Origin: Coriobacteriia bacterium
GTDB taxonomy: Bacteria; Actinomycetota; Coriobacteriia; WRKU01; WQUG01
Length of the DNA stretch: 64,000 nt
Assembly: GCA_009778715.1 (NCBI GenBank)
Contig: WRFR01000001.1
Coordinates: 3,383 to 67,382, forward strand
Direction of reading: 5' to 3'
Shown here: piece by piece, positions 5,504-46,058 of the stretch
How positions within the stretch are numbered: position 1 is the stretch's first letter
How the letters are laid out: each line of letters starts with the position of its first letter
Notes under the pieces: model-generated
What the model was told of the DNA's origin: nothing
Databases searched by the model: none
Seen by the model: only the letters and a program-made list of their open reading frames with translations
Translations under genes and position numbers: made by a program

Positions 5504-5773
5504 ATGTTGATCAAATCATCAACCGCTCTGCGCAGCGACTACAATGCTATATCGACTTTGGCGCAAGAGACGCAGGAACCTATCTATATCACCAAGAATG
5601 GCGAAGGTGATCTTGTGGTGATGAGCATAGAGGCGTTTGAGCTACGCGAAGAACTTGTTAAGCTGGAAGCCAGTTTGGAATATGCTGAACGGGCTCGCCA
5701 GCAAGGGGATGAAGGTTTCTCGATAGAGAATTCGCGCGCAAGCCTGGAAGTTATCTATGGAACCCAAGTTTGA
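5504..5773 (+). CDS. Phd/YefM-family type II antitoxin
   Basis: 89 aa. …EPIYITKNGEGDLVVMSIEAFE… is the characteristic Phd/YefM core. It overlaps the downstream toxin gene by 17 nt. Confidence 0.8.
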   Translation: MLIKSSTALRSDYNAISTLAQETQEPIYITKNGEGDLVVMSIEAFELREELVKLEASLEYAERARQQGDEGFSIENSRASLEVIYGTQV

Positions 5774-6086
5774 TCTCCGTATCCTGACATCCGCCCAGTA
5801 TGACCTGGAGAGGATCGCTCTGCTCCACTTCTCATACGTGGGACCAGAATCTGCGCGTAAGATAACGAATGCACTCTATGATGCAATGGAGCATCTGTGT
5901 CGGTTCCCGGATATGGGAGTTGTATTACCCGACAAGTCACTGCAATCTCTGGGTTATCGGGGGCTGATTGTAGGTCATTATCTTTGTGTATATCGCCACA
6001 TCGAGACAACGGTATTCGTTTACCGTGTATTTAATGCCCGCTCTGATTATCCGCAGTTATGGAGAACATTGCCTAAGGGGAAATGA
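5757..6086 (+). CDS. ParE/RelE-family type II toxin
   Basis: 109 aa basic protein with a RelE/ParE-like C-terminus (…GHYLCVYRHIETTVFVYRVFNARSDYPQ). Translationally coupled to phd. Confidence 0.75.
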   Translation: MEPKFDLRILTSAQYDLERIALLHFSYVGPESARKITNALYDAMEHLCRFPDMGVVLPDKSLQSLGYRGLIVGHYLCVYRHIETTVFVYRVFNARSDYPQLWRTLPKGK

Positions 6087-6197: not shown

Positions 6198-6428
6198 GTG
6201 ATGAAGACACGGATCCAGGAGCTGCGTAAAGAGCGCAAGCTATCGCAGGAGGAACTGGCGACAGCGGTCGGCGTGACACGCCAGACGATCACGTCTCTTG
6301 AGACGGGGAAGTACACCGCTTCGCTCGTACTGGCTGCTAAGATCGCTCGCTATTTTGACCTGACGATCGAAGAGGTGTTTCTGATCGATACTGACGATAT
6401 GCCCGGAGCAGAGGCGGGCAGGAAATAG
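6198..6428 (+). CDS. XRE-family helix-turn-helix transcriptional regulator (76 aa)
   Basis: …LRKERKLSQEELATAVGVTRQTITSLETGKYTASLVLAAKIARYFDLTIEEVF is the canonical Cro/C1-type HTH_3. Confidence 0.8.
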   Translation: MMKTRIQELRKERKLSQEELATAVGVTRQTITSLETGKYTASLVLAAKIARYFDLTIEEVFLIDTDDMPGAEAGRK

Positions 6429-6440
6429 GGAGAGAACATC

Positions 6441-6950
6441 ATGGGAATGGCAGAGGGAGTACTTGCTTCCAGCACATTGAAATACAAACATCAAGTGAAA
6501 ATGCGCCTGGCTCTTATGATCGCCATGTTTATCTGGGGTGCGCTTGCGATCGTTATCTCATTCGTTGGTTCTAATGCAAAGACGGTCGCCTCACTGCAAG
6601 ATGCAGGAATTTCTGTTCATGTGCTCAGCGAGTCCATGCAAGGTTTCTATCGTGGATTCGGCGTCGGTTTTATGGGTGCTGCTGCGGTTTTTGTGATCAT
6701 TAACCTGTACTTGCTGATTAATAAAAAGGCGCAAGCGAATCGTCGTGTGCGTGATCTGGACGAACGCAATGTAGCGATCCAGCAACGGGCTACGTCGCTT
6801 ACTGCCGCGATCACGATCATTCTCGCTGCATTTGCCATAATAGTCGCTGGCGTATTTAACACTGCGGTAATGTTTACGTTGATCGCTGTAAACCTGATAA
6901 TGGGTGCAATCTATGGGTGTGCGTGGTTGATCTTGAGATCGCGCTCCTGA
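6441..6950 (+). CDS. Small 4-TM membrane protein (DUF2975/YoaS-like partner of XRE regulator)
   Basis: 169 aa with four hydrophobic helices. It is adjacent and co-oriented with the XRE gene, in the yozG/yoaS-type arrangement. Confidence 0.55.
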   Translation: MGMAEGVLASSTLKYKHQVKMRLALMIAMFIWGALAIVISFVGSNAKTVASLQDAGISVHVLSESMQGFYRGFGVGFMGAAAVFVIINLYLLINKKAQANRRVRDLDERNVAIQQRATSLTAAITIILAAFAIIVAGVFNTAVMFTLIAVNLIMGAIYGCAWLILRSRS

Positions 6951-6954
6951 TCAG

Positions 6955-6987
6955 GTGACAAAACTACCCCAGGGGTAACTCTGTCAG
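6955..6987. repeat. GTGACAAA…TGTCAG palindromic intergenic repeat, copy 1 (imperfect)
   Basis: aggtgacaaaactaccccaggggtaactctgtcag. It shares the aggtgacaaa…ccccagggg core with copy 2. Confidence 0.5.
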
Positions 6988-7048
6988 CGGATGACAAGAC
7001 GGCAGCAATGAGAGCGGGCGCAGGCCCGCTCTCGCTATACTGAAACGC

Positions 7049-7897
7049 ATGAAGAACAGGGATACATCACGCAATCGTGAGCCGATCGGGATATTTGATT
7101 CCGGGCTCGGAGGGCTCACGGTCATGCGCCAGATCGCCGATCTGCTCCCTGGTGAAAGCCTCATGTATCTGGGTGACACACTGCGCTGTCCCTATGGGCC
7201 GCGTCCGGCAGAAGAGGTGCGCGACTTCGCGCTGCAGGTCTGCCATTTCTTGCAGAATCAGGGTGTGAAGCTCATCGTTATCGCCTGCAATACGGCGACG
7301 GCGGTCGCTCTTGAGGCTGCGCAGGAGGAGTTCCCGGTTCCTATTATTGGGGTCATTGATCCCGGCGCGCGCGCGGCGGCACAGGCGACGCGCAATCGTC
7401 GCGTCGGCGTCATTGGCACGGAGGGCACGATCACTTCAGGCGCTTACGAGCGGGCTCTGCTGAGTAATGACGCAGGCCTGCAGGTGACCAGCGTGGCGAC
7501 GCCGGACTTTGTGCGCATCGTCGAGGAGGGCCTGAGCCATAATGGCGAAGGGGAGGTTTGGATCCCGGATGAGTTCTTCGACCTGGCGCACCGCCAACTC
7601 GACCCGCTCGTGGAAGCGGGAATCGACACGTTGGTGCTGGGTTGCACTCACTATCCGATACTTGCGCCCGCACTCCAGCGGGTAGTCGGCCCGGGAGTGA
7701 CGCTTATCAGCTCGGCCGAAGAGACCGCGCGCGAAGTAAAGGCAACGTTGGCGCGACGCGGCAACGCAGCGACATTTGGCCATGTCGTGTATTCATCCTG
7801 GCAGATGTTTACCACGGGCGACCCCGAGGTCTTCGCGCGGCTCGGCGCGCGTATCATGGACGATTCGCCGTTGCCTGTTTTGCCTGTCGATTTATAA
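7049..7897 (+). CDS. murI: Glutamate racemase
   Basis: IGIFDSGLGGLTV…CNTA…GCTHYP motifs. Confidence 0.9.
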   Translation: MKNRDTSRNREPIGIFDSGLGGLTVMRQIADLLPGESLMYLGDTLRCPYGPRPAEEVRDFALQVCHFLQNQGVKLIVIACNTATAVALEAAQEEFPVPIIGVIDPGARAAAQATRNRRVGVIGTEGTITSGAYERALLSNDAGLQVTSVATPDFVRIVEEGLSHNGEGEVWIPDEFFDLAHRQLDPLVEAGIDTLVLGCTHYPILAPALQRVVGPGVTLISSAEETAREVKATLARRGNAATFGHVVYSSWQMFTTGDPEVFARLGARIMDDSPLPVLPVDL

Positions 7898-7902
7898 TAG
7901 AG

Positions 7903-7931
7903 GTGACAAACACCCCAGGGGTGTTTGTCAC
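7903..7931. repeat. GTGACAAACACCCC-AGG-GGTGTTTGTCAC perfect palindromic repeat, copy 2
   Basis: 13-bp perfect arms. Sits between murI and rph. Confidence 0.6.
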
Positions 7932-7942
7932 AATAGGTGAGC

Positions 7943-7975
7943 GTGACAAAATGGTGCCTGTCCCCATTCTGTCAC
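7943..7975. repeat. GTGACAAAATGG…CCATTCTGTCAC palindromic repeat, copy 3
   Basis: 12-bp near-perfect arms with a 9-nt loop. Lies 11 nt after copy 2. Confidence 0.55.
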
Positions 7976-7996
7976 CACAGAAAGGAATATCTTTCA

Positions 7997-8719
7997 ATGA
8001 GTTCACGCAGTTATGATCGCACCGCCGACGCATTGCGTCCGGTTTCTATCGAGCGCAACGTCAGCAAGAACGCTTATGGTTCGGCGTTTATCCGCTGTGG
8101 CGACACGCACGTACTGTGTTCGGCCACGATCGAGGACAAAGTGCCAAGCTGGCGCAAGATGTCTGGTCAGGGCTGGGTGACCGCCGAGTACGCCATGCTT
8201 CCCACTGCGACAGGCGAGCGGACGCGCCGCGAGCGCAACGGCGCCAAAGGCCGCACACTTGAGATCGAGCGCCTGATCGCACGAAGCCTGCGCACGGTGA
8301 TCGATCTGGGCGGCCTGGGCGGCGAGGTCACGGTCACGGTCGACTGCGACGTGATCCAGGCCGACGGCGGCACGCGCACCGCTTCGATCACCGGCGCCTA
8401 TGTCGCGCTGCACGATGCGCTCCAGACCTGGAAGGAAGCCGGCATGATCTCAAGCATGCCGCTGACGGGACAAGTGGCGGCGATCAGTGTGGGCTTAGTC
8501 GACGGGGAAGCGCTGCTCGACCTTGACTACGAAGAGGACAGTCACGCTGAGGTTGACATGAACGTGGTCTGCGACGACCAGGGCAACTTCATCGAGCTCC
8601 AGGGCACAGGGGAGCGGGTCTCGTTCTCGCGCCACCAGCTCAACGGCTTCCTGAACCTGGCCGAGGCAGGCATCAAGGAACTGATGGCGATCCAGAAATC
8701 GGTGTTGGCCGGTGAGTGA
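7997..8719 (+). CDS. rph: Ribonuclease PH
   Basis: MSSRSYDRTADALRPVSIERNVSKNAYGSAFIRCGDTHVLC… The listed ORF starts at 7937. The internal ATG 7997 with aaAGGAat upstream matches the Rph N-terminus. Confidence 0.9.
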   Translation: MSSRSYDRTADALRPVSIERNVSKNAYGSAFIRCGDTHVLCSATIEDKVPSWRKMSGQGWVTAEYAMLPTATGERTRRERNGAKGRTLEIERLIARSLRTVIDLGGLGGEVTVTVDCDVIQADGGTRTASITGAYVALHDALQTWKEAGMISSMPLTGQVAAISVGLVDGEALLDLDYEEDSHAEVDMNVVCDDQGNFIELQGTGERVSFSRHQLNGFLNLAEAGIKELMAIQKSVLAGE

Positions 8720-9365
8720 CGCAAGGGGAGAGACGCCGACGATCGTCGTTGCGACTGGCAATGCACACAAGGTGGTCGAGATTGCCGCGGCATTGGGTGC
8801 TGCGGCAGACAGCCCACTGGCGGGGATAGGCTTCGATGCGGTCCATGAGCTCTACCCGGACTTCATTGATCCCGTTGAGGACGGAGCCACTTTTGAGGAC
8901 AACGCTGCCATCAAGGCGCACGCGGCGCACTATGTGTCGGGGTTACCTTCGCTGGCCGATGACTCCGGGCTTGTGGTCGATGCGCTGGATGGCGCGCCTG
9001 GCATCTACTCAGCGCGTTACTGTGGCGTCGAGCATGATGACGCGGGTAACAACGAGAAGCTCTTGCGGGAATTGGAGGGAGTGCCAGCGCAGCGGCGCCG
9101 CGCGCGCTTCGTCTCTTGTCTGGTTGTGGTGGGCCTGAACACGATCATAGATCGTCCAGGTTATGGCTACCTGACCGTGACGGGGACCTGTGAGGGTTCG
9201 ATCGGATTTGAGCCACAGGGCAATAATGGCTTTGGCTACGATCCGCTGTTTTTGCCGGACGCTACTCCGGGTCGCAGTATGGCTCAGCTCACTCTCGAAG
9301 AGAAGACGGCGATCTCACACCGCGGCGATGCGCTCCGCAAGCTGCTCGCCGTGTTACACTCGTAA
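8712..9365 (+). CDS. rdgB: Non-canonical purine NTP pyrophosphatase (RdgB/HAM1)
   Basis: TIVVATGNAHKVVEI…SGLVVDAL…GAPGIYSARY. Overlaps the rph stop. Confidence 0.85.
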   Translation: MSDARGETPTIVVATGNAHKVVEIAAALGAAADSPLAGIGFDAVHELYPDFIDPVEDGATFEDNAAIKAHAAHYVSGLPSLADDSGLVVDALDGAPGIYSARYCGVEHDDAGNNEKLLRELEGVPAQRRRARFVSCLVVVGLNTIIDRPGYGYLTVTGTCEGSIGFEPQGNNGFGYDPLFLPDATPGRSMAQLTLEEKTAISHRGDALRKLLAVLHS

Positions 9366-9379
9366 GCGTATTAAACGAT

Positions 9380-9485
9380 CGGGAGCTGCCAAAAGCGGCA
9401 GCTGAGAGGCGCGGGCTTACCGCGCGACCGAAACGACGGCGCCGGTAATGCGGCGCTTGCAGGGCTTCGCCCATCGTTTCCCCGA
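9380..9485 (+). ncRNA. Probable TPP (THI-box) riboswitch in thiT leader
   Basis: GGGAGCUGCC…GGCAGCUGAGAGG (conserved GCUGAGA) followed by …GCGCCGGUAAUGCGGCGC…GCAGGGC (CCGG-UAAUG-CCGG-like P5 and AGGG). It lies directly upstream of a ThiT-like gene and a thiamine pyrophosphokinase. The P1 pairing could not be resolved by eye. Confidence 0.55.
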
Positions 9486-9502
9486 AGAGATAAGGAGAAA
9501 CG

Positions 9503-10108
9503 ATGAGCGCTCGCAGCACTTCACTCAGAATCCACACCCTGGTCGAAGCAGGTCTCTGCATTGCGCTGTTCGCGGTACTGCAGTATCTCAATGTTCGCCT
9601 GCCGATCAATATCGCGGGGGGGACTATATCGTTTTCAATGGTGCCGATCGTGCTGTTTGCGTTGCTCTACGGCCCGGGCTGGGGCATGGTGGTCGGCGCG
9701 CTTTGCGGCCTGATCGACCTGATGCTGGAACCCTTTATCGTCAATGTCTTCCAGGTCTTTCTTGACTATCCACTGGCGTTTGCCTGTGTGGGGTTCTCTG
9801 GCCTGCTGGCGCCCCTTACGCGCCAGCTGTTGGCGCATGGCAAGAGGGCGCCGGCAGCGGCGTTCGCGTTCATCGCTACGCTGCTGGGGGTCTCCTGCCG
9901 CTTCGTCCCGCACTTCATCTCGGGTGTGATCTTCTTTGCGAGCAATGCGCCTAAAGGCCAGAACGTCTATCTTTATTCGGCGACCTACAACCTGAGCTAT
10001 CTGTTGCCAGCTGGATTTATCTGCGCGGTTATCTTGGCGGTTGTAGTACCAGTCATACTGCCGCTCCTGTCACAGCGCTACCAAGTCAAGGCAAACGCTA
10101 ATGTCTGA
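9503..10108 (+). CDS. thiT: Thiamine transporter ThiT (ECF S-component)
   Basis: 201-aa polytopic protein. …RFVPHFISGVIFFASNAPKGQNVYLYS resembles ThiT …HFIAGIIFWSQYAWKGW…AYS. SD AAGGAGAaacgATG. Confidence 0.7.
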   Translation: MSARSTSLRIHTLVEAGLCIALFAVLQYLNVRLPINIAGGTISFSMVPIVLFALLYGPGWGMVVGALCGLIDLMLEPFIVNVFQVFLDYPLAFACVGFSGLLAPLTRQLLAHGKRAPAAAFAFIATLLGVSCRFVPHFISGVIFFASNAPKGQNVYLYSATYNLSYLLPAGFICAVILAVVVPVILPLLSQRYQVKANANV

Positions 10109-10736
10109 GCCCCGTCAACAGAGCGCGCTTCTGGCCTGCGTGCTTGCAGGCGATACTGACCAGGAAGACCCGTGTGACTACGATCTCACGATCGCGGTCG
10201 ACGGAGGATTGGCGTGGTTTCGCGAGCGAGGGGTCGCTCCGGACTTGTTCCTGGGGGATGGGGACTCTGCCACGGAGGAAGACCAGGACTGGGCGCGCCA
10301 GCGGGGAACCGCATTCCAGTTGGTGTCTCCAGACAAAGACTACTCGGATTTTGACCTCGCGTTGGACGTCTGCGAGCAACGTGAAGCGACAACCGCTACG
10401 GTGATCGGAGCGATTGGGGGCCGACTTGACCAGCAGCTCGGTATCTTCGGATCACTGTTACGTCATCCTGCGCTTCAGACGACCGTGCGTGATACGCAGC
10501 AATTCATCACACCTGTCTTTGCCGGTCAAACCTATCAATGCGCAGAGCCCGTAACGACCTTCGGCGTCGTCGCGCTTGAGCCAGCCATCGTAACCGTGCG
10601 CAATGCCCGTTGGCCGCTTGACTCAGCGCGTCTTGAGCCGCTCAGCACCTGGGGCATCTCGAACGAACCACAGGGCGGGCAACCCCAGATTGTCGTTGAG
10701 ACAGGCGCCGCCCTTTTCATAGGGCAATACGCATAA
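10101..10736 (+). CDS. Thiamine pyrophosphokinase
   Basis: …LFLGDGDSATEE… (GDxDS) and AIGGRLDQQ (ALGGRxDH-like) motifs. Overlaps the thiT stop. Confidence 0.7.
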   Translation: MSEPRQQSALLACVLAGDTDQEDPCDYDLTIAVDGGLAWFRERGVAPDLFLGDGDSATEEDQDWARQRGTAFQLVSPDKDYSDFDLALDVCEQREATTATVIGAIGGRLDQQLGIFGSLLRHPALQTTVRDTQQFITPVFAGQTYQCAEPVTTFGVVALEPAIVTVRNARWPLDSARLEPLSTWGISNEPQGGQPQIVVETGAALFIGQYA

Positions 10737-10770
10737 AAAACGCCCGGTCGCACTGACCGGGCGTTTCGCT
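10737..10770. terminator. Bidirectional rho-independent terminator between thiN(+) and rpmB(-)
   Basis: aaaaACGCCCGGTCgcactgGACCGGGCGTttcgc: 11-bp GC-rich stem with A-run on one side and T-run on the other. Confidence 0.6.
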
Positions 10771-10807
10771 CTCCTCTAAAGCCAGAGGACGCGAGAGGGC
10801 GCCGTAA

Positions 10808-10999
10808 CTAATAGACCCGCTCTACTTTATCCGCTTTCAGGCACTTGGTGCAGACATTGATCTTCTGTACCTTGCCTTCGTGCAGAGCAGTGACTTTCTG
10901 GATATTGGGCTTGAAGGTCCGGTTAGTGACCCGATGCGAGTGGCTGATGTTGCGCCCCGCCGTGGGATGCTTCCCGCATATTGCGCAGACCTGTGACAT
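10808..10999 (-). CDS. rpmB: 50S ribosomal protein L28
   Basis: MSQVCAICGKHPTAGRNISHSHRVTNRTFKPNIQKV… SD AAGGAG 6 nt upstream of the start on the minus strand. Confidence 0.85.
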   Translation of the reverse strand: MSQVCAICGKHPTAGRNISHSHRVTNRTFKPNIQKVTALHEGKVQKINVCTKCLKADKVERVY

Positions 11000-11133
11000 A
11001 ATGAACTCCTTGATAGATTATATGGTTTGTTTGTTCGGGCGACTTTCCAGTCGCAAATAATCATGCTATCACAGCCCCGAACTGCTGACAAGCACGCCTC
11101 GCTTGCTTTATAATAACTGTTTGACTTCTGTCC

Positions 11134-11526
11134 GTGTCCGCAACCTTTGAAAGAGAGCAGATCATGCCTAATAACGTACCCGGTTTGATCCAGATATCGA
11201 ATGATGTCCTGGCCGATCTCTCGGGCTATTGTGCCCTTGAAGTGTATGGAGTGGTCGCTATGGCTGCGCCTACCTTAGTCGAAGGAGTGGTCCAACTGCT
11301 GCCTGCACAGAAACTGCGGCGCGGCGTGCGCATCACAACGATTGACCTTGACGGCGAGGGCATGACAGTTGTTGATGTGGACCTCTATGTCATCATCGAA
11401 TATGGCACTAACCTCGCTGAGGTCAGCAAGAACCTGGCAGAGCGCGTACGTTACGTGTTAACTTCCCAGGCATCGGTAACCGTGGGGCGTGTCGACGTTC
11501 ATGTTCTTGATGTGAAGGTTCGGTGA
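11134..11526 (+). CDS. Asp23/Gls24-family (alkaline shock) protein, YloU-like
   Basis: 130 aa. Its position upstream of the DAK2 protein matches yloU-yloV. Confidence 0.75.
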   Translation: MSATFEREQIMPNNVPGLIQISNDVLADLSGYCALEVYGVVAMAAPTLVEGVVQLLPAQKLRRGVRITTIDLDGEGMTVVDVDLYVIIEYGTNLAEVSKNLAERVRYVLTSQASVTVGRVDVHVLDVKVR

Positions 11527-13151
11527 TCAATCCTATGACCGTTCAGGTATCCCCACGGGAGGTCATCGCTGGTGCGTCGGCCGTCCTGAAGTCTCGCCAC
11601 GAGGAAGTCAACAAGCTTAATGTGTTTCCGGTGCCTGATGGCGACACAGGTACGAACATGAGTCTCACGCTCGAGTCAGTGGTCAGCGAGGTACTTACCC
11701 TGCCCGCCGACGCAACGCTTGAAGAGATCACGAGAGCGGCTACCCACGGGTCGCTCATGGGTGCGCGCGGCAACTCGGGCGTTATCCTGTCGCAGATCAT
11801 CCGCGGCATCTGCGAGGGGATCATTGCCTCGTTGGATGAAAACGCTGGCGCGGAGCGTATGGCGCAGGCTTTTGAGCATGCGAAGACCGTTGCCTACCAG
11901 GCAGTGCGCAAGCCGGTCGAGGGCACGATGCTCACGGTAGTGAGTGACATGGCTATGGCTGCGCGTCAGGCAGCTGAGCAAGAGCAGTCCTTTGACGACG
12001 CGCTCCAGACTGTCTCGTCCGCGGCACACGTCTCGGTTCAGCGTACTCCCGATCTGCTGCCAATACTTAAGGAGTCCGGGGTCGTTGATTCGGGCGGTTT
12101 TGGCCTTGCGATCATTTTCGACGCGGTGGTCAACATACTTCTGGGCAAAGAGCAGGCCGAGGCGCCCGCGTTTGTGCCCCGTGGTGTTCTTTCGGTCAAT
12201 CCGGTCGACGACTGGGATGATGATGAGTATCTCTACTGCACGGAGTTCCTGCTGTTTGGTGAGGGGATCGACCGCGAGGCTGTGCATGACTTCATCGCGA
12301 GCCAGGGCGGGTCAGAACTGGTGGTCGGCGACTATGGACAGTACAAGATCCACGTTCATACTGATGATCCTTCCAAAGTACTGGCGTATGCGCTCACTCA
12401 GGGCGAGATAGCCGAGGTCCACATCCATAACATGCGCCGCCAGCAGGCGGAGCGGGGCCAGGGGTCTGAACCCGCCACCCCGGTGGCTCCCAAAAAGATC
12501 GGAGTCATCGCCGTGTCAGCGGGCGAGGGGACCGGCAATATCCTGAAGTCCCTTGGCGTTGACGTTCTGGTGTCCGGTGGACAGACGATGAACCCTTCCA
12601 CACAGGACTTTGTCGCGGCGGCAAAAAGCGTTCCAGCTGAGTCTTACATTTTGCTCCCCAACAACAGCAACATCGTGATGGCGGCCAATACGGCAGCCGC
12701 CCTGATCGAGGCGCCTACGATCGTTGTGCCAACGACTTCGATCCCTGAAGCGTTCTCAGCGCTGTTGGCTTTCGACGAGGGCATGGACCTGGATACGCTT
12801 CAGGCAGAGATGAGTGAAGCAGCCAGTGAGGTCACGACCGCTGAGGTCACCACAGCTATAAAGGACGCCAAATCGTCGGTCGGCGACATCAAAGAGGGAG
12901 ATATTATCGGTATCATTGGCTCCAAGGATATCCGTGCCAAAGGCACGAGCATCCCCGAGGTCGCGCTGTCACTGCTTGAGACCCTGCCGCTGGAAGAAGC
13001 CAGCACAATCACCCTGTTGACCGGTGTTGATCTTGACGCGATGGATCTAGCCAGGCTTCGTACAATGCTGTCAGAGCAGCACCCGGAGCTTGAATGTGAT
13101 ATTCAGGATGGTGGGCAACCGCTCTATCCGTTGGTCATGGCGGTCGAATAG
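11523..13151 (+). CDS. fakA: DAK2-domain protein (YloV / fatty-acid kinase FakA-like)
   Basis: 542 aa. N-terminal Dak2-like (…DGDTGTNM…GARGNSGVILSQI…) plus the C-terminal domain typical of YloV/FakA. Followed by a DegV gene. Confidence 0.75.
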   Translation: MINPMTVQVSPREVIAGASAVLKSRHEEVNKLNVFPVPDGDTGTNMSLTLESVVSEVLTLPADATLEEITRAATHGSLMGARGNSGVILSQIIRGICEGIIASLDENAGAERMAQAFEHAKTVAYQAVRKPVEGTMLTVVSDMAMAARQAAEQEQSFDDALQTVSSAAHVSVQRTPDLLPILKESGVVDSGGFGLAIIFDAVVNILLGKEQAEAPAFVPRGVLSVNPVDDWDDDEYLYCTEFLLFGEGIDREAVHDFIASQGGSELVVGDYGQYKIHVHTDDPSKVLAYALTQGEIAEVHIHNMRRQQAERGQGSEPATPVAPKKIGVIAVSAGEGTGNILKSLGVDVLVSGGQTMNPSTQDFVAAAKSVPAESYILLPNNSNIVMAANTAAALIEAPTIVVPTTSIPEAFSALLAFDEGMDLDTLQAEMSEAASEVTTAEVTTAIKDAKSSVGDIKEGDIIGIIGSKDIRAKGTSIPEVALSLLETLPLEEASTITLLTGVDLDAMDLARLRTMLSEQHPELECDIQDGGQPLYPLVMAVE

Positions 13152-13193
13152 CGTCAAAACAAGAGCGAGCGATACAGGGACAGGTAATAATCT

Positions 13194-14075
13194 ATGGGAA
13201 AGATCTTTGTAAAGAACGATATGGCGATCGTGACTGACGGTTGCGGTGATATCACTCTCGAGGAAGCGCGCGACCGTTCGATCTGTGTGCTGGAAACACA
13301 TATCACCCTGGGAGACGGCACCCTAACCGACTCCGAGCATTTTACCGCCCGGGATTTCTGGGATTCGCTCTTTGAGAATACCGAGGTACTGCCCAAGACC
13401 GCGCTGGTCACTCCGGGAAGATTTCTTGATTGCTACAAGCAGGCGGCAGAGGCAGGCGCAAAACATATTCTGGCAATCATCATGTCATCAGCGTTGTCAG
13501 GAGGTTATGACGCGGCTTGTCAGGCAGCGGAGCAGTCACCTGTGCCGACGACGGTCATCGATTCCCGTGCGGTGACACGCGGAACAGCCATACAGGTACT
13601 GGCTGCGGCAGACCTTCGTGACGCAGGGGTTCCTTTTGACGATATCGTGGCGCAGGTCACGGCTGTTCGCGATTCGATGCATATCGACTTTCTGGTCGAT
13701 AACCTTGAGTTTCTGGTACGGGGCGGTCGTGCAGGCAAATCGGCGCAAATGCTGGCGTCTGTGCTCAACATAAAGCCAGTATTGCGTGTCTTCGAGGACG
13801 GCAGTATCGATGCCTATAAGAAATGTCGGGGCACGAAAAAGGCGATGGCAGAACTTGCAAAGCGCGCCGTTGAAGACACGCCAGGCGAGGGATGGCACTA
13901 TTCCCTGGCTATTACCAGCAAGCCCGAACTTGAGGCGGTAGCCAACGAGGCTTTGGGGCACGCTGGATTCAAGGCGAGCTATGATGGTCCTTTCCAGGTG
14001 GGCATCATCGTTGGCATCTACTGCGGGCCGGGCACTGTTGCCGTACTGACCTATCGTCTTCCCTGCCTGCCGTAG
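13194..14075 (+). CDS. DegV-family fatty-acid-binding protein (FakB-like)
   Basis: 293 aa. …IIMSSALSGGYDAACQAA… matches the DegV SSxLSGTY motif. Confidence 0.75.
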   Translation: MGKIFVKNDMAIVTDGCGDITLEEARDRSICVLETHITLGDGTLTDSEHFTARDFWDSLFENTEVLPKTALVTPGRFLDCYKQAAEAGAKHILAIIMSSALSGGYDAACQAAEQSPVPTTVIDSRAVTRGTAIQVLAAADLRDAGVPFDDIVAQVTAVRDSMHIDFLVDNLEFLVRGGRAGKSAQMLASVLNIKPVLRVFEDGSIDAYKKCRGTKKAMAELAKRAVEDTPGEGWHYSLAITSKPELEAVANEALGHAGFKASYDGPFQVGIIVGIYCGPGTVAVLTYRLPCLP

Positions 14076-14127
14076 GGGCTGCAGGACGGACCGGACCCGT
14101 TGGGGCCGAATTACCGAGGAAGGTTAC

Positions 14128-16254
14128 GTGACTGCCTCATCTGCAATATCAACAAGCAGCGTTAATCCCGCGGCGCGTATGCAGGCTTGGGCAGCGCCGG
14201 TCAGCAGTGCGCGCTACGTTGACGATGAGCGTGCGTCCCAGCTGGGAAAGCTCGGCATCACGCGCATCGGGCATCTGCTTTACCACAAACCACTACGCTA
14301 TCTTGACTTGACGCATGTCTCATCTTTGGCAGAAGTCCATTTAGGGGAAGCAACAGTCATTGGCCAGGTATATGCGGTTCGGGAGCGCCGTCCGCGCCCA
14401 AAGCTGTTAGTGACCGAAGTGACGTTGACTGATGGCACGGGTACGCTGATCGGCGTGTGGTGGAATCAACCCTGGGTCAAAAAGGCTTTTCAACCGGGCG
14501 AGACGGTAGCCTTTGCGGGTACGGTCAAACTGGAATATGGGCTCAATCGCATTGTGCAGCCCTTTTATGAGAAATTAACTTCTGCGGATGGTTCTTCGCA
14601 CGCACAAGAGCCGACCAACCTGGGCCGTATCCTGCCCGTACACCCTACGACTGAGGGATTCTCAGTCGGCTGGATGAGGCGTATCATCGCGGCGGCCGTC
14701 AACGATTACGCCGATGTCCCCGAATACCTACCGCAAGAAGTACTGGAAGCGCGGGGGTTTATGCCCTTTGCGCAAGCCTTGCGTCAACTACATTTTCCCG
14801 ATGACTTGCAAAGCGCCGAGCAGGCGCGCCGCCGCCTGGCCTATGGCGAGTTCTTCGACTTCCAGTTGCTGCTGGCGCGGCGGGGCTGGCGCATGCGCAA
14901 CGAGAGCGGGGGATGGGCGCATGAGATAGGTGGCCCTCTGCTTGCGCGTTTTCGTGCGGAGATGCCACTGACACTGACCGATGACCAGGCCTGCGCAACC
15001 ACCGAGATCCTGGCTGATCTCGGGCGTCCCGAAGCAATGAACCGCCTGCTTTTAGGTGATGTCGGCACGGGCAAGACGCTCGTGGCGACCTTCGCGTTGG
15101 TTGCCGTGGCAGACACAGGGACGCAAGCTGCGATGATGGCGCCTACAGAAGTGCTCGCGCAGCAGTACGCATACAAGGTAGGCCCTCAGCTCGATGCGCT
15201 GAGCATCAGCTGGGCGCTGCTGACCAGCTCGACGCCGCCGGTAGAGCGCACGCGGATCCAGGCGGGCCTCGCAGACGGGAGCATCACGGTCGCGTTCGGG
15301 ACTCACGCCCTGCTGGAAGAGGACATCAACTTTAAGGCGCTCACTCTGACCATCATTGATGAGCAGCATCGTTTTGGTGTCGAACAGCGCCAGGGCCTGC
15401 AAAAAAAGGCCCAGTCACCAGACGTTTTGATCATGACCGCAACGCCCATCCCGCGCACGCTTGCGTTGCTTGCGTATGGCGACCTTCTGATATCCTACCT
15501 GCGCACCCGGCCCATCGCCGGTGCTGGCGTGAGCACACAACTGATCGATGCGACCAGGCTGGGGGAAGCTTATGATGCGGTGCGCACCGCTGTTGCTGCG
15601 GGGCAGCAGGCCTACGTGGTCTGCGCACTGGTCGAGGAGTCGGAGACTTTGGATGCGCGCTCGGTCGAAGAGGAGGCAGCGCGGCTTAAGGCCGAAGTGT
15701 TTGAAGACCTTTCGGTCGAGATACTGACCGGCAAGATGCGCCCGGCGGACAAAGAGGCGACGATGGCGCGCTTCCGGGCAGGAGAAATCCAGGTCCTGGT
15801 GGCGACTACGGTCATCGAGGTCGGCGTGGATGTGTTAAACGCCACGGTCATGGTCGTATTGGACGCTGATCGCTTTGGCCTGGCACAGCTGCATCAGCTG
15901 CGCGGCCGGGTCGGACGTGGCGAGATTGCCGGGCAGGTCTGGCTTGTGGCGCGTCATGCAAATGCAGAGGCGCGCGAGCGCCTACAGGCACTGGTCGAGA
16001 TCGATGACGGCTTTCGCCTGGCCGAGCTTGACCTGGAGATGCGCGGGGCAGGTGAACTCCTGGGGAGTCGGCAGAGCGGTCTGGCGCGTTTTGCCTTAGG
16101 TGACGTACTGGAAGATCGCGATCTTGTCAATGCAGCGCATGAAGACGTAGGGCCTCTTGCCGCCGACCTGGCTTTTGCAGATACCGAGACGCTACTCTCT
16201 TTGCGTATTGCTGCTCTGGAGGAAGAACTTGCAGCGGACGGGCCGGTGAACTGA
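14128..16254 (+). CDS. recG: ATP-dependent DNA helicase RecG
   Basis: 708 aa. N-terminal wedge/OB, GDVGTGKT Walker A, DEQHRFGV, HQLRGRVGRG. Confidence 0.9.
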   Translation: MTASSAISTSSVNPAARMQAWAAPVSSARYVDDERASQLGKLGITRIGHLLYHKPLRYLDLTHVSSLAEVHLGEATVIGQVYAVRERRPRPKLLVTEVTLTDGTGTLIGVWWNQPWVKKAFQPGETVAFAGTVKLEYGLNRIVQPFYEKLTSADGSSHAQEPTNLGRILPVHPTTEGFSVGWMRRIIAAAVNDYADVPEYLPQEVLEARGFMPFAQALRQLHFPDDLQSAEQARRRLAYGEFFDFQLLLARRGWRMRNESGGWAHEIGGPLLARFRAEMPLTLTDDQACATTEILADLGRPEAMNRLLLGDVGTGKTLVATFALVAVADTGTQAAMMAPTEVLAQQYAYKVGPQLDALSISWALLTSSTPPVERTRIQAGLADGSITVAFGTHALLEEDINFKALTLTIIDEQHRFGVEQRQGLQKKAQSPDVLIMTATPIPRTLALLAYGDLLISYLRTRPIAGAGVSTQLIDATRLGEAYDAVRTAVAAGQQAYVVCALVEESETLDARSVEEEAARLKAEVFEDLSVEILTGKMRPADKEATMARFRAGEIQVLVATTVIEVGVDVLNATVMVVLDADRFGLAQLHQLRGRVGRGEIAGQVWLVARHANAEARERLQALVEIDDGFRLAELDLEMRGAGELLGSRQSGLARFALGDVLEDRDLVNAAHEDVGPLAADLAFADTETLLSLRIAALEEELAADGPVN

Positions 16255-16257
16255 CCT

Positions 16258-16824
16258 ATGCGTATCATCGCCGGTGACTATAAGGGCAGAAATCTGCAGG
16301 GGCCTTCAGGCAGTGCGGGCACTCGCCCTACCGCCGACCGAGTCCGCGAGGCGCTCTTCTCGCACGTGGAAGCGCGCCTGGGGAACCTCCAAGGGCTGCG
16401 GGTAGTAGACCTGTTTGCGGGCACCGGAGCGCTTGGGCTTGAAGCGCTCTCACGCGGCGCGGTACATGCGGTCTTTGTCGAGACGGACCATACGGTTGCA
16501 GGAATCTTGCGAAACAATATCGAGCATTGCGGAGCTGAAGAGCGTACGACGCTGAGGGTAGGCAATGCTTTCGTCCTGTCTGCTCGTCTGGCGCCGCTCG
16601 GCCCCTTTGATCTGGTTCTGCTCGACCCGCCCTATCGCACCCCTGCAGAAGAAGTGATGCGCCTATTGGAAGCCTTGCGCCAGGAAGGCGCGATCGCGTC
16701 AGGGACCTATGTCGTCTACGAGCATGAGCGCCGCACCCCACCGCTCTGGCCTGCGTGTTATGATGAGGTGCATCAGGCGCGCTATGGCAAGACTTACCTG
16801 AGCAGTGCCGTTGTTATCAGGTGA
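16258..16824 (+). CDS. rsmD: 16S rRNA (guanine966-N2)-methyltransferase RsmD
   Basis: MRIIAGDYKGRNL…RPTADRVREALFS…LDPPY. Confidence 0.85.
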   Translation: MRIIAGDYKGRNLQGPSGSAGTRPTADRVREALFSHVEARLGNLQGLRVVDLFAGTGALGLEALSRGAVHAVFVETDHTVAGILRNNIEHCGAEERTTLRVGNAFVLSARLAPLGPFDLVLLDPPYRTPAEEVMRLLEALRQEGAIASGTYVVYEHERRTPPLWPACYDEVHQARYGKTYLSSAVVIR

Positions 16825-16849
16825 CAAAGGGTCAGGTACTTTGTCACCT
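16819..16849. repeat. AGGTGACAAAG-ggtcaggta-CTTTGTCACCT palindromic repeat, copy 4 (contains rsmD stop codon)
   Basis: 11-bp perfect arms. The TGA of rsmD is the tga of gTGAcaaag. Confidence 0.55.
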
Positions 16850-16870
16850 GACAGAAAGTTGAGGCAGACT

Positions 16871-17353
16871 ATGACGACCGCCGTCGTACCCGGGACTTTT
16901 GACCCAATCACCTCAGGGCACCTCGATATCATCGAGCGTGCGGCTCATCTCTTTGATGAGGTGATCGTGGGTGTGGCAGCATCGGAGCACAAGAACGGCA
17001 CCGGGCCGCTCTTCACCGCGGATCAGCGTGTGGGCTTGATCCAGGAAGCGACCGCACACCTGAACAACATCAGAGTGGCTCCATTCGAAACGCTGCTCAT
17101 CGACTTTGTCCGTGCCCAGGGAGGCGATGTCATTGTCAAGGGTCTGCGCGCGATGACTGACTTTGAGCATGAATTCCAGATGGCGGCACTCAACGGGCGT
17201 ATGAACAGCGAGGTTGAGACGCTCTTCATCATGTCTGCGCCTGAGTTCATGTATCTGAGTTCGTCTGCGGTCAAGGAGATCGCGGCTTTGGGCGGGCCGG
17301 TAAATGGCCTGGTGCCGAACTGTGTTGAAAAGGCGCTCCGTAACGGTTTTTAA
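16871..17353 (+). CDS. coaD: Phosphopantetheine adenylyltransferase
   Basis: MTTAVVPGTFDPITSGHLDIIERA… (T/HxGH). The listed ORF begins at 16805. ATG 16871 fits the CoaD N-terminus. Confidence 0.9.
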   Translation: MTTAVVPGTFDPITSGHLDIIERAAHLFDEVIVGVAASEHKNGTGPLFTADQRVGLIQEATAHLNNIRVAPFETLLIDFVRAQGGDVIVKGLRAMTDFEHEFQMAALNGRMNSEVETLFIMSAPEFMYLSSSAVKEIAALGGPVNGLVPNCVEKALRNGF

Positions 17354-17476
17354 AACTAGGGTAACGCTTCTTAATATGCCGGTTCGATTTGCCGTATGAT
17401 ACTATACGCTTCTGTTCTTTATGTGCAGTGATGGCATATAGAGAATCCGAATCACCAGATTTGAAAGGTGTGGCAC

Positions 17477-17932
17477 ATGGATATTTTGCAGCTCATCGAT
17501 CGCATCGAGGAGGCTATCGACTCAGCAAAGTCGGTTCCCCTGAGCAGCAATAAAATGGTCGATCCTGATGCGATCTTCGACATCATCGATGAGATACGCA
17601 GCCAGTACCCTGAAGATTTGAAGCAGGCACGCTGGATTGTGAAGCAGCGCCAGGAGATGACCGAGGAAGCGGAGCGCGAGGCGAACCGAATCCTGGAGGA
17701 GGCACAGGAGCGCGCGCGTGGATTGGTCGCTGATACGGAGATCGTTCGTCAGGCGGAGACCCGCGCGGCAGAGATCATGGATGACGCTCGTGCCAACGAG
17801 CGTGAGATCCGCTTGGGCGCCGAGGACTATGCTGATGAGATGATGGCCAACCTTGAGGTCAACCTTGGCAAGATGCTCACCGCTGTCCAGCGCGGCCGCG
17901 ATCGCCTGCAGGGCAAACCCATCCAGCGCTAA
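17477..17932 (+). CDS. Hypothetical acidic coiled-coil protein (151 aa)
   Basis: Charged, helical sequence (…EEAEREANRILEEAQERARGLVADTEIVRQAETRAAEIMDDARANEREIRLGAEDYADEMM…) with no Cys. SD GAAAGG 8 nt upstream of ATG 17477. It occupies the slot before rpmF. Confidence 0.4.
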   Translation: MDILQLIDRIEEAIDSAKSVPLSSNKMVDPDAIFDIIDEIRSQYPEDLKQARWIVKQRQEMTEEAEREANRILEEAQERARGLVADTEIVRQAETRAAEIMDDARANEREIRLGAEDYADEMMANLEVNLGKMLTAVQRGRDRLQGKPIQR

Positions 17933-18036
17933 GACCAAGCGCGTAGCATACTGCTCAGTATAGTTCTGCTTACTGCGCGCAAGTTTGCTATACTGAGAAA
18001 CCGTCTGAAACATAAGAAAAGGAATCGAGTAATACC

Positions 18037-18210
18037 ATGGCAGTACCTAAGAGGAAAAAAGGACGCGCAAAAACGAACTCGCGTCGGAGCAGCCACAGCC
18101 TGGAAGCGGCGGCCACACAGGAATGTCCGCAGTGCCACGAGCCAAAGCTCCCGCATCAGGTGTGCCCGCATTGTGGAACCTACAATGGCAAGCAGGTCAT
18201 CGCGGTCTAG
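18037..18210 (+). CDS. rpmF: 50S ribosomal protein L32
   Basis: MAVPKRKKGRAKTNSRRSSHSLEAAATQECPQCHEPKLPHQVCPHCGTYNGKQVIAV (57 aa, below the ORF-track cut-off). Cys4 zinc ribbon. SD AAAAGGAAtcgagtaataccATG. Confidence 0.8.
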   Translation: MAVPKRKKGRAKTNSRRSSHSLEAAATQECPQCHEPKLPHQVCPHCGTYNGKQVIAV

Positions 18211-18258
18211 CGCCCGCTCTTTGAGAGCCTTGAGCCAACTGGCCTGCTCTTGTTTAAG

Positions 18259-18286
18259 CGTGACAAACACCCCGAGGTGATCGTCA
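18259..18286. repeat. GTGACAAACACCCC-gag-GTGATCGTCAC palindromic repeat, copy 5 (imperfect)
   Basis: Shares gtgacaaacacccc with copy 2. Lies between rpmF and plsX. Confidence 0.5.
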
Positions 18287-18301
18287 CATTAAGGATTACT
18301 A

Positions 18302-45892: not shown

Positions 45893-45969
<77 letters not shown>

Positions 45970-46058
45970 TTTTGGCGGCACTGAGCCGCCGTGACGAAAC
46001 CCTCAAGTAGGCAACTACGAATCGGCTTTCGTCACGACGCCTCAGCACTCGCCAAAAC
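45970..46058. repeat. Structured tRNA-adjacent element E1 with terminal inverted repeats TTTTGGCGG…CACTCGCCAAAAC
   Basis: ttttggcggcactgagccgcc-gtgacgaaa…tttcgtcac-…cactcgccaaaac has nested hairpins. It shares its ends with E2 at 49540-49645. Confidence 0.45.

Follow-up and report, generated by a model that had tools for sequence, protein, structure and literature searches.

Palindromic repeats in the window

The 64-kb stretch of the Coriobacteriia bacterium contig WRFR01000001.1 analyzed herein (hereafter referred to as the window) was found to carry five hairpins of the form GTGACAAA…TTTGTCAC, each located in a short gap between same-strand genes, in a region including murI, rph, rsmD, coaD, rpmF and plsX. 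Apart from rpmB (L28), the only exception noticed, the major open reading frames (ORFs) of the first 20 kb are encoded on the + strand. A Pfam search confirmed the copy-flanking genes as murI, rph, Ham1, rsmD-like, coaD and plsX, and also detected a P-type ATPase and a ParE toxin within these 20 kb, while the ORF presented as rpmF is a putative L32 gene, named after the ortholog called in a related sequence, L005 (compared sequences are denoted by L numbers throughout). The closest named murI relatives belong to Coriobacteriia and 'Actinomycetes' metagenome-assembled genomes (MAGs), and identical murI-bearing fragments occur in a JGI metagenome. The five copies, read on the + strand, are as follows.

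Copy 1, 6955-6987, between the DUF2178 gene and murI: GTGACAAAACTACCCCAGGGGTAACTCTGTCAG, a degenerate palindrome with arms GTGACAAAACTACCCC AG GGGTAACTCTGTCAG; starts 4 nt past the stop of the DUF2178 gene (6441-6950), with the murI ATG 61 nt downstream; covariance model marginal (E 0.29); RNA fold -13.7 kcal/mol, z -1.95.
Copy 2, 7903-7931, after murI: perfect palindrome GTGACAAACACCCC A GGGGTGTTTGTCAC with 14-nt arms and a single central A; starts 5 nt past the murI stop; covariance model 45.9 bits; RNA fold -21.9 kcal/mol, z -5.7.
Copy 3, 7943-7975, before rph: GTGACAAAATGGTGCCTGTCCCCATTCTGTCAC, arms GTGACAAAATGGTGCC TGTC CCCATTCTGTCAC, with an inner stem unlike that of copy 2; 11 nt past copy 2, with the rph ATG (7997) 21 nt downstream; covariance model 23.9 bits.
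Copy 4, 16817-16851, between rsmD and coaD: perfect 13-nt arms TCAGGTGACAAAG / CTTTGTCACCTGA around a 9-nt loop; coaD ATG at 16872; covariance model 34.5 bits; RNA fold -21.0 kcal/mol, z -5.7.
Copy 5, 18260-18287, between rpmF and plsX: GTGACAAACACCCCGAGGTGATCGTCAC, imperfect, arms GTGACAAACACCCC GA GGTGATCGTCAC; 49 nt past the rpmF stop (18210), with the plsX ATG (18302) 14 nt downstream; covariance model 26.5 bits; RNA fold -11.4 kcal/mol, z -3.1.

An earlier note on this DNA had reported five hairpin copies, and all five were indeed present where it placed them. The arms of copies 2 and 4 that it regarded as perfect proved to be so, with lengths of 14 nt in the former and of 13 nt, instead of the proposed 11 nt, in the latter; the rsmD stop codon was likewise found embedded in copy 4, the TGA at 16822-16824 being that within its GTGAC. 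The proposed location at gene edges held for murI/rph, rsmD/coaD and rpmF/plsX, and was revised for copy 1, which follows the DUF2178 gene and not mgtA. In agreement with the view that these hairpins are not classical terminators, no T-run followed any window copy on the + (coding) strand, and only the - strand of copy 2 passed the terminator scan. A search at Rfam gathering scores over the window and 29 related loci yielded only tRNAs and one lysine riboswitch, none of them on a palindrome.

A covariance model trained on 63 distinct copies of the family was run unfiltered over the entire window. Four copies were recovered at E <= 5e-5, all four being part of its training set, and beyond copies 1-5 and a hairpin at 45988-46038 (E 0.024) the model found nothing in the 64 kb. 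The three imperfect copies (1, 3 and 5) folded at -11 to -14 kcal/mol with z of -2 to -3. Copies 2 and 3 (starting at 7903 and 7943) constitute a tandem pair, and relatives of the copy 3 inner stem, with an AAAATGG…CCATTTT design, were found in L160 (4451), L154 (151) and L131 (2924).

Distribution of the family

Further copies beyond this region, which the earlier note had left to a genome-wide search, turned out to be abundant in related genomes. A scan for AGGTGACAAA-N8-16-TTTGTCAC over one genome per species (596 Gb) gave at least 120 matches, the chance expectation for this pattern being, by our own arithmetic, about 156 matches in the entire collection. Among the 120 matches listed, about 25 belonged to Coriobacteriia (roughly 17 to Collinsella, with Eggerthella, Coriobacteriaceae and two termite-gut MAGs) and about a dozen to Clostridia. 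The Collinsella copies read GTGACAAAGGGAC-W-GTCCCTTTGTCAC, with near-identical interiors and up to four copies per 8 kb; the copy in the termite-gut MAG L026, GTGACAAACACCCCAGGGGCGTTTGTCAC, is window copy 2 with one base changed; and the Clostridia copies read GTGACAAAAGGGACGGTTCTTTTTGTCAC, i.e., the palindrome with an extra A in several Clostridia. Such near-identical interiors within the Collinsella, L026 and Clostridia copies indicated that the matches are not random.

The first 19 bases of copy 2 (GTGACAAACACCCCAGGGG) were found exactly in 37 JGI metagenome stretches, almost all from two termite-gut metagenomes, many of which hold the whole 29-mer of copy 2; identical 29-mers occur on dozens of unrelated contigs. 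These stretches, 198 kb in total, gave 56 matches to the GTGAC…GTCAC pattern, a few of them by chance, and 50 instances, with 27 distinct sequences, of the stricter GTGACA…TGTCAC pattern. Members of the family are therefore present well outside the window, Coriobacteriia carrying the family itself and Clostridia a related form. A full-text literature search for a set of exact family strings returned only unrelated primer or human matches.

No match was obtained in 50,697 phage records, and scans of viral contigs gave one and four matches. Among plasmids, the sole informative match was a 2.6-Mb Acetoanaerobium record, two weak Vibrio matches being located inside a coding gene. These results indicated that the element is not typically phage- or plasmid-borne. 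The Acetoanaerobium noterae record itself (L166; NZ_CP154629.1, 338960-344980), listed in PLSDB as 'plasmid pTPELB2', is 2.63 Mb long, almost unannotated and chromosome-like. It holds ATCAAAAGGGACGGTTCTTTTTGAT palindromes and solitary AAAAGAACCGTCCCC motifs, whose inner core is that of the Lachnospiraceae copies but whose outer arms differ.

Conserved block and compensated stem

The TGACAAA/TTTGTCA block, which forms the lower stem, was near-invariant over the 63 distinct copies. In their alignment, paired cells amounted to 85.4% as compared with 75.8% in shuffles, and the covariation score was 0.225 as compared with 0.094; neither value was reached in 500 shuffles, and sliding the partner by 1-3 columns yielded a score of 0.117 at most. 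Just inside the block, G-C, C-G, A-U and U-A alternatives were observed, each pair carrying 10-31 double changes. The position outside the block was compensated as well (ATGAC…GTCAT, TTGAC…GTCAA and CTGAC…GTCAG, all of them model matches missed by the patterns), as was a rare change within the block (GTGCC…GGCAC), and the flanks followed a covarying consensus, nAG-GTGAC…GTCAC-CTn. These compensatory changes inside and outside the block showed that the palindrome, or the folded form itself, is kept. The copies are 27-33 nt in length and fold at -11 to -22 kcal/mol, with 11 to 17 nt or more between the conserved blocks.

The statistics also bear on another explanation, namely, that the window copies are mutually unrelated palindromes arising by chance in GC-rich intergenic DNA. 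GTGAC-N6-45-GTCAC is only modestly enriched (seven seen against about three by our own arithmetic), and two of its occurrences (13618 and 59957) look accidental. The exact 8-mer GTGACAAA, however, occurs seven times on both strands against 1.48 expected, a count reached by none of 100 shuffles; considering also the identical 29-mers on dozens of contigs and a covariation above all controls, we assign next to no probability to chance.

Placement, doublets and arrays

In the Coriobacteriia genomes, where ORFs were called crudely (greedily, longest first), the distance from the stop codon to the hairpin was 15 nt or less in 25 of 32 cases, most copies being no farther than about 10 nt from the stop, and in seven cases the TGA of GTGAC itself serves as the stop codon. 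Many copies fill gaps between convergent genes. The neighbours are ordinary and unrelated genes, such as EF-G-like and UvrA-like genes and those for ABC transporters, peptidases, FKBP and a solute-binding protein, and no transposase was found among the flanking genes surveyed with Pfam. Inverted doublets with the copies 5-12 nt apart were observed (L144 628/662, L149 2835/2869, L163 14/48, L137 1680/1718 and L105 111/152), the halves of which exchange two arm types, GTGACAAACACCCC and GTGACAATTRCCCC, and L111 carries a tandem array of four copies.

In a Collinsella locus comprising an EF-G-like gene, an AAA_16+wHTH gene, a UvrA-like gene and another AAA_16+wHTH gene (L048 238-5256, L071 267-5923 and L040 2578-6371), palindromes occupy several gaps and are retained over several species clusters, and thus at least some copies are long-lived at fixed positions. 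The AAA_16+wHTH protein was considered as the cognate factor since its gene is copy-flanked on both sides; this holds at one orthologous locus only, represented by sequences from many Collinsella species, the other copies flanking unrelated genes, and the candidate was rejected.

The location of copies after stop codons and between convergent genes, which is where terminators sit, would also suit a cis element acting at the RNA level, in which the transcribed hairpin is a sequence-specific 3'-end or processing signal (e.g., a U-tract-less terminator, an exonuclease barrier, or a site for an RNA-binding protein or RNase) setting how stable adjacent cistrons are relative to each other. All window copies lie within same-strand gene strings and would be transcribed, the stems of the perfect copies are stable at -21 kcal/mol, and many REPs (repetitive extragenic palindromic sequences) have been argued to act as RNA elements (Di Nocera et al., PMC3733652). 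On the other hand, the hairpins lack a U-tract and match no Rfam family, and a generic hairpin function leaves the fixed TGACAAA block unexplained. Furthermore, where the upstream gene of a copy was clear, the sense strand showed 20 G·U and 21 A·C mismatches, i.e., no excess of the former, so that no strand-specific RNA selection was visible.

A further argument came from a composite repeat of about 95 nt, found 14 times in the termite-gut contigs, in which CAGAAAACA, a variable compensated hairpin, TGTTTTTG..AC and CTCGCGCCGCTGGCGCTC precede the GTGACAAA palindrome. Its first hairpin is terminator-like and flanked by A- and T-runs, and CTCGCGCCGCTGGCGCTC is a small covarying hairpin with one compensated variant, GCACC/GGTGC. 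All six composites with a readable upstream stop codon are located just downstream of the gene with the terminator-like hairpin first. Owing to this preceding hairpin, a large part of the transcription would stop ahead of the palindrome, which speaks against a role solely at the RNA level. The composites include those at L135 456, L136 3500, L146 746 with three more sites, L152 4507, L154 133 and 525, L155 1091 and L160, among others; none was found in the window. On balance, we regard the RNA-level explanation as rather unlikely.

Gain and loss between relatives

In L167, the closest relative (murI 83% identical), the region around murI is colinear with the window but contains none of copies 1-3. 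The absence of copy 1 there is a clean indel of about 37 nt, extending from the stop codon to conserved downstream sequence, with both flanks conserved. Copy 2 is missing at its junction in L167, L168, L005 and L002, and copy 3 is likewise missing at its junction in relatives. L168 (81%) has a copy of its own upstream of murI with another compensated interior, GTGACAAAGAGGTC AG ACCTCTTAGTCAC. What L005 and L002 retain is a lone GTGACAA(A/G), some 30 nt ahead of the -10 box of murI, with the appearance of a decayed left arm. The rsmD/coaD junction of L140, a fragment of 84% identity, is occupied by a copy whose interior differs (CACCCC type), the TGA of its GTGAC aligning with the rsmD stop, and the more distant L002 and L005 have neither a copy there nor any model match at all. 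No convincing target-site duplication was found at the copy 1 and copy 4 indels. These differences among L167, L168, L005, L002 and L140 indicated that the intergenic gaps of this lineage are hypervariable and colonized by several repeat families.

The earlier note had left two readings side by side, a REP-like family or a conserved operator, and it is the latter that the comparison with relatives weakens. As an operator, the palindromes would be the sites of a dimeric transcription factor co-regulating murI, rph, coaD and plsX; their palindromic sequence with a conserved outer block, the position of copies 3 and 5 at 14-21 nt upstream of start codons, and the lone GTGACAA(A/G) that L005 and L002 keep ahead of the -10 box of murI would be in line with such a function. 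However, orthologous junctions in relatives are without copies, the half-site spacing is not fixed (11 to 17 nt or more between blocks), and the interior covaries, which a duplex-binding dimer does not require. Moreover, most copies in other genomes are found behind stop codons or in convergent gaps, and the genes flanking copies across genomes have no function in common. An operator is thus highly unlikely, and the REP-like behaviour, with its compensation, doublets, arrays, and gain and loss, stands.

That copies are gained and lost would also be expected of a minimal miniature inverted-repeat transposable element (MITE), in which the two terminal inverted repeats (5'-TG…CA-3') of an insertion sequence (IS) of the DDE type are directly joined, the transposase of that element being supplied in trans; the source IS would have terminal repeats matching TGACAAAC/G…. 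The fixed block TGACAAA…TTTGTCA does begin with TG and end with CA, and such ends are typical of the IS3 family and many other DDE elements. Nevertheless, neither the copy 1 indel nor other junctions show a visible target-site duplication, and no longer transposase-bearing element bounded by these arms was found in 1.16 Mb. The only copy-bounded genes were murI here and AAA_16/wHTH at the one orthologous Collinsella locus, and the covarying pairs outside TG…CA would fall outside such an element. We accordingly consider this origin quite improbable.

A probable untagged REP-like family

Extragenic palindromes at many loci, stem compensation, doublets, arrays, and gain and loss between relatives are all features of REP-like behaviour. 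The copies thus probably belong to an untagged family of short REP-like DNA palindromes in Gram-positive gut anaerobes, that is, a new family rather than a wholly new kind of element. 'REP-like' is supported here as a description of behaviour, and does not imply membership of the REPs driven by REP-associated tyrosine transposases (RAYTs).

In the proposed mechanism, a trans-acting protein recognizing the folded hairpin together with the TGACAAA block would spread or maintain the copies. By analogy with the HUH/Y1 transposases acting on REPs, recognition would most plausibly take place on single-stranded DNA. In operons such as murI-rph and rsmD-coaD, transcription of the flanking genes would then include the copies, and the stable stem of the perfect ones (about -21 kcal/mol) could incidentally block 3' exonucleases or punctuate cistrons. 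The order of the composites and the lack of a G·U excess favour such a DNA-level element with incidental RNA effects.

Several observations weigh against the REP-like interpretation. The cognate REP-associated transposase that the earlier note proposed to look for was not found: tblastn over 1.16 Mb with IS200 and IS608 TnpA queries gave only two IS200-type genes (L103 and L147), which have unrelated end hairpins of their own (CCCCGCGGTCTCTGCCGCGGGG) and are flanked by no family copy. No conserved unpaired GTAG/CGTC tag is present, GTAG directly preceding only 3 of about 60 copies (L026, L163 and L037), and a near-fixed block in two phyla, Actinomycetota and Bacillota, is unusual for REPs. The window itself holds five to six copies in 64 kb, all except the doubtful one being inside 11 kb (6.9-18.3 kb). 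In addition, the copies stable at orthologous Collinsella sites fit a conserved host function equally well.

Extra direct half-sites also count among these points. TTTTGTCACC recurs at 9-11 nt spacing in L016, L013, L020, L037 and L126, and direct arrays of the right half-site (CCTTTTGTCAC, up to six consecutive units at 11-nt spacing) accompany full palindromes in Clostridia and Collinsella (L016 670-910, L013 2434-2453 and L020 350-369, also L037 and L126), resembling iterons or protein-binding arrays more than hairpins. The inner core CAAAAGGGACGGTTCTTTTTG in turn recurs with other outer arms, namely ATCAAAAGGG… in Acetoanaerobium and GTACACAAAAGGG… on viral contigs. Considering these half-sites and the core with other arms, the clostridial and coriobacterial forms may be two related families overlapping in Collinsella.

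A tentative alternative, which we hold to be unlikely, is that the palindromes are cis sites of an undescribed trans-acting system common to gut Coriobacteriia and Clostridia. TGACAAA, in a hairpin or cruciform just behind genes, would then be read by a protein, either a new transposase or nuclease specific for hairpins or a host factor that structures DNA, and in Clostridia the inner AAAAGGGACGGTTCTTTTT core would be read as well. If true, no REP-type replicator or host-factor system would have been defined before this one in Gram-positive anaerobes, and it would extend across phyla.

Comparison with known systems

The properties of the family, interpreted above as REP-like, resemble those of the REP and bacterial interspersed mosaic element (BIME) repeats of enterobacteria and of the RAYT-associated REPINs (REP doublets forming hairpins) of Pseudomonas. 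They share an imperfect palindrome of 27-33 nt, an extragenic location mostly just downstream of genes, in same-direction or convergent gaps, apparently many copies per genome in relatives, doublets and small arrays, stem compensation, and an occupancy varying between relatives. Unlike REPs and REPINs, the family has no GTAG/CGTC tag and no RAYT/Y1 gene was seen next to any copy, its fixed block is within the stem and not in an unpaired tail, and essentially one and the same block is found in both Actinomycetota and Bacillota, although a REP type is normally restricted to a single lineage. Nearly all of the work on REP-type repeats has been done in Proteobacteria.

A GTAG or CGTC tag marks most described REPs (PMC3733652), and the tagged superfamilies are of the same size class, placement and dimer organization as the present untagged family. 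They have been listed in Proteobacteria, Cyanobacteria, Chloroflexi, the Planctomycetes-Verrucomicrobia-Chlamydiae (PVC) group, Chlorobi, Bacteroidetes, Spirochaetes and Thermotogae, and Actinobacteria, Firmicutes and GTGAC are not mentioned in that survey of tagged REPs (Di Nocera, De Gregorio, Rocco 2013, PMC3733652).

Two further systems are worth comparing. For the subterminal hairpins of IS200/IS605 elements and their non-autonomous derivatives, recognition of a sequence-specific hairpin in single-stranded DNA would explain both a fixed block and covarying pairs, but the hairpins of the L103 and L147 transposase genes are unrelated to the family. The U-tract-less ('I-shaped') terminators of Actinobacteria are likewise stable hairpins right after a gene without a T-run in high-GC Gram-positive bacteria; each of them is, however, a different sequence, whereas the family block is common to hundreds of hairpins across genomes.

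Three other resemblances were considered and rejected. The matS site of enterobacteria, which is bound by MatP and is a 13-bp GTGAC-N3-GTCAC, shares the two 5-mers with the family, but the spacing is 17-23 nt in every family copy as compared with 3, and the copies are far too many; to our knowledge, MatP is not expected in these organisms, and the resemblance was treated as a coincidence. A promoter with nTGACA as the -35 box was discarded, as no acceptable -10 box was found at a distance of 16-18 nt and convergent genes flank many of the copies. The resemblance to a Mini-III (ACCU) site was dropped since AGGT…ACCT was partly imposed by our own search pattern.

The family is common to abundant human-gut genera and groups (Collinsella, Eggerthella and Lachnospiraceae) and to termite-gut Coriobacteriia, and its fixed in-stem block offers a handle for finding the protein that reads it. 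As copies come and go between close relatives, they may serve as a strain-typing marker, and caution is advised in annotation since upstream genes often take their stop codon from the element, which also occupies operon junctions. For the window alone, the finding is a modest one, in that the five sites are better read as repeats than as a hidden regulon.

Other repeats and neighbouring features

Another repeat family, this one GTAG-tagged (GTAGGGCGCGACGACCCGGCGCGCC; compensated variant GTAGGGAGCGCCGACCCGGCGCTCC), was represented by 18 copies in termite-gut Coriobacteriia contigs. It was found in L130, L135, L141, L142, L145, L146, L151-L154, L167 (183, - strand) and L169 (75, - strand), and hence in the closest relative of the window organism (L167), with none in the window. 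Positions 1-1330 of L146 constitute a gene-free 'repeat island' containing four composites, GTAG repeats, a GTCATTCTGCGCGTTAGTCGCAGAAT inverted-repeat family and GGGGGACTTCAGGATGGTGA tandem units.

The hairpin at 45988-46038 was considered as a sixth window copy. It is a long hairpin with GTGACGAAA…TTTCGTCAC directly after a tRNA-Pro gene and folds at -31.8 kcal/mol. A stretch of about 92 nt around it (45966-46057) is 81.5% identical to L139 3838-3929, which is not beside a detected tRNA. In L139, GTGAC/GTCAC is replaced by GCGGC/GCCGC, a compensatory change to that very block, and the hairpin was accordingly demoted. It is most likely a separate structured element, and the 45966-46057 element is possibly a repeat or an attachment site.

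Upstream of murI, a TATACT box 7 nt before the ATG (7036-7051) is conserved in all relatives (L167, L169, L005 and L002), which suggests a leaderless murI transcript. Just upstream of this box lies a GC-rich hairpin, GAGAGCGGGC-GCAG-GCCCGCTCTC (7010-7033), which is kept in L167 and L169.

Defence and toxin-antitoxin genes are clustered at the left end of the window, namely AbiEi/AbiEii, PhdYeFM/ParE and an HTH_XRE + DUF2178 pair (701-2345, 5504-6086 and 6201-6950), the PhdYeFM antitoxin and the HTH/DUF2178 pair being taken from precomputed gene calls on ENA ERZ27257295 k141_465155, an 80.6-kb metagenome contig that includes the window. Just upstream of the window on the same contig, E2-CBASS (cyclic oligonucleotide-based antiphage signaling system) and DUF6602 genes are present (L006 220-1435), and the HTH/DUF2178 pair is conserved beside murI in relatives.

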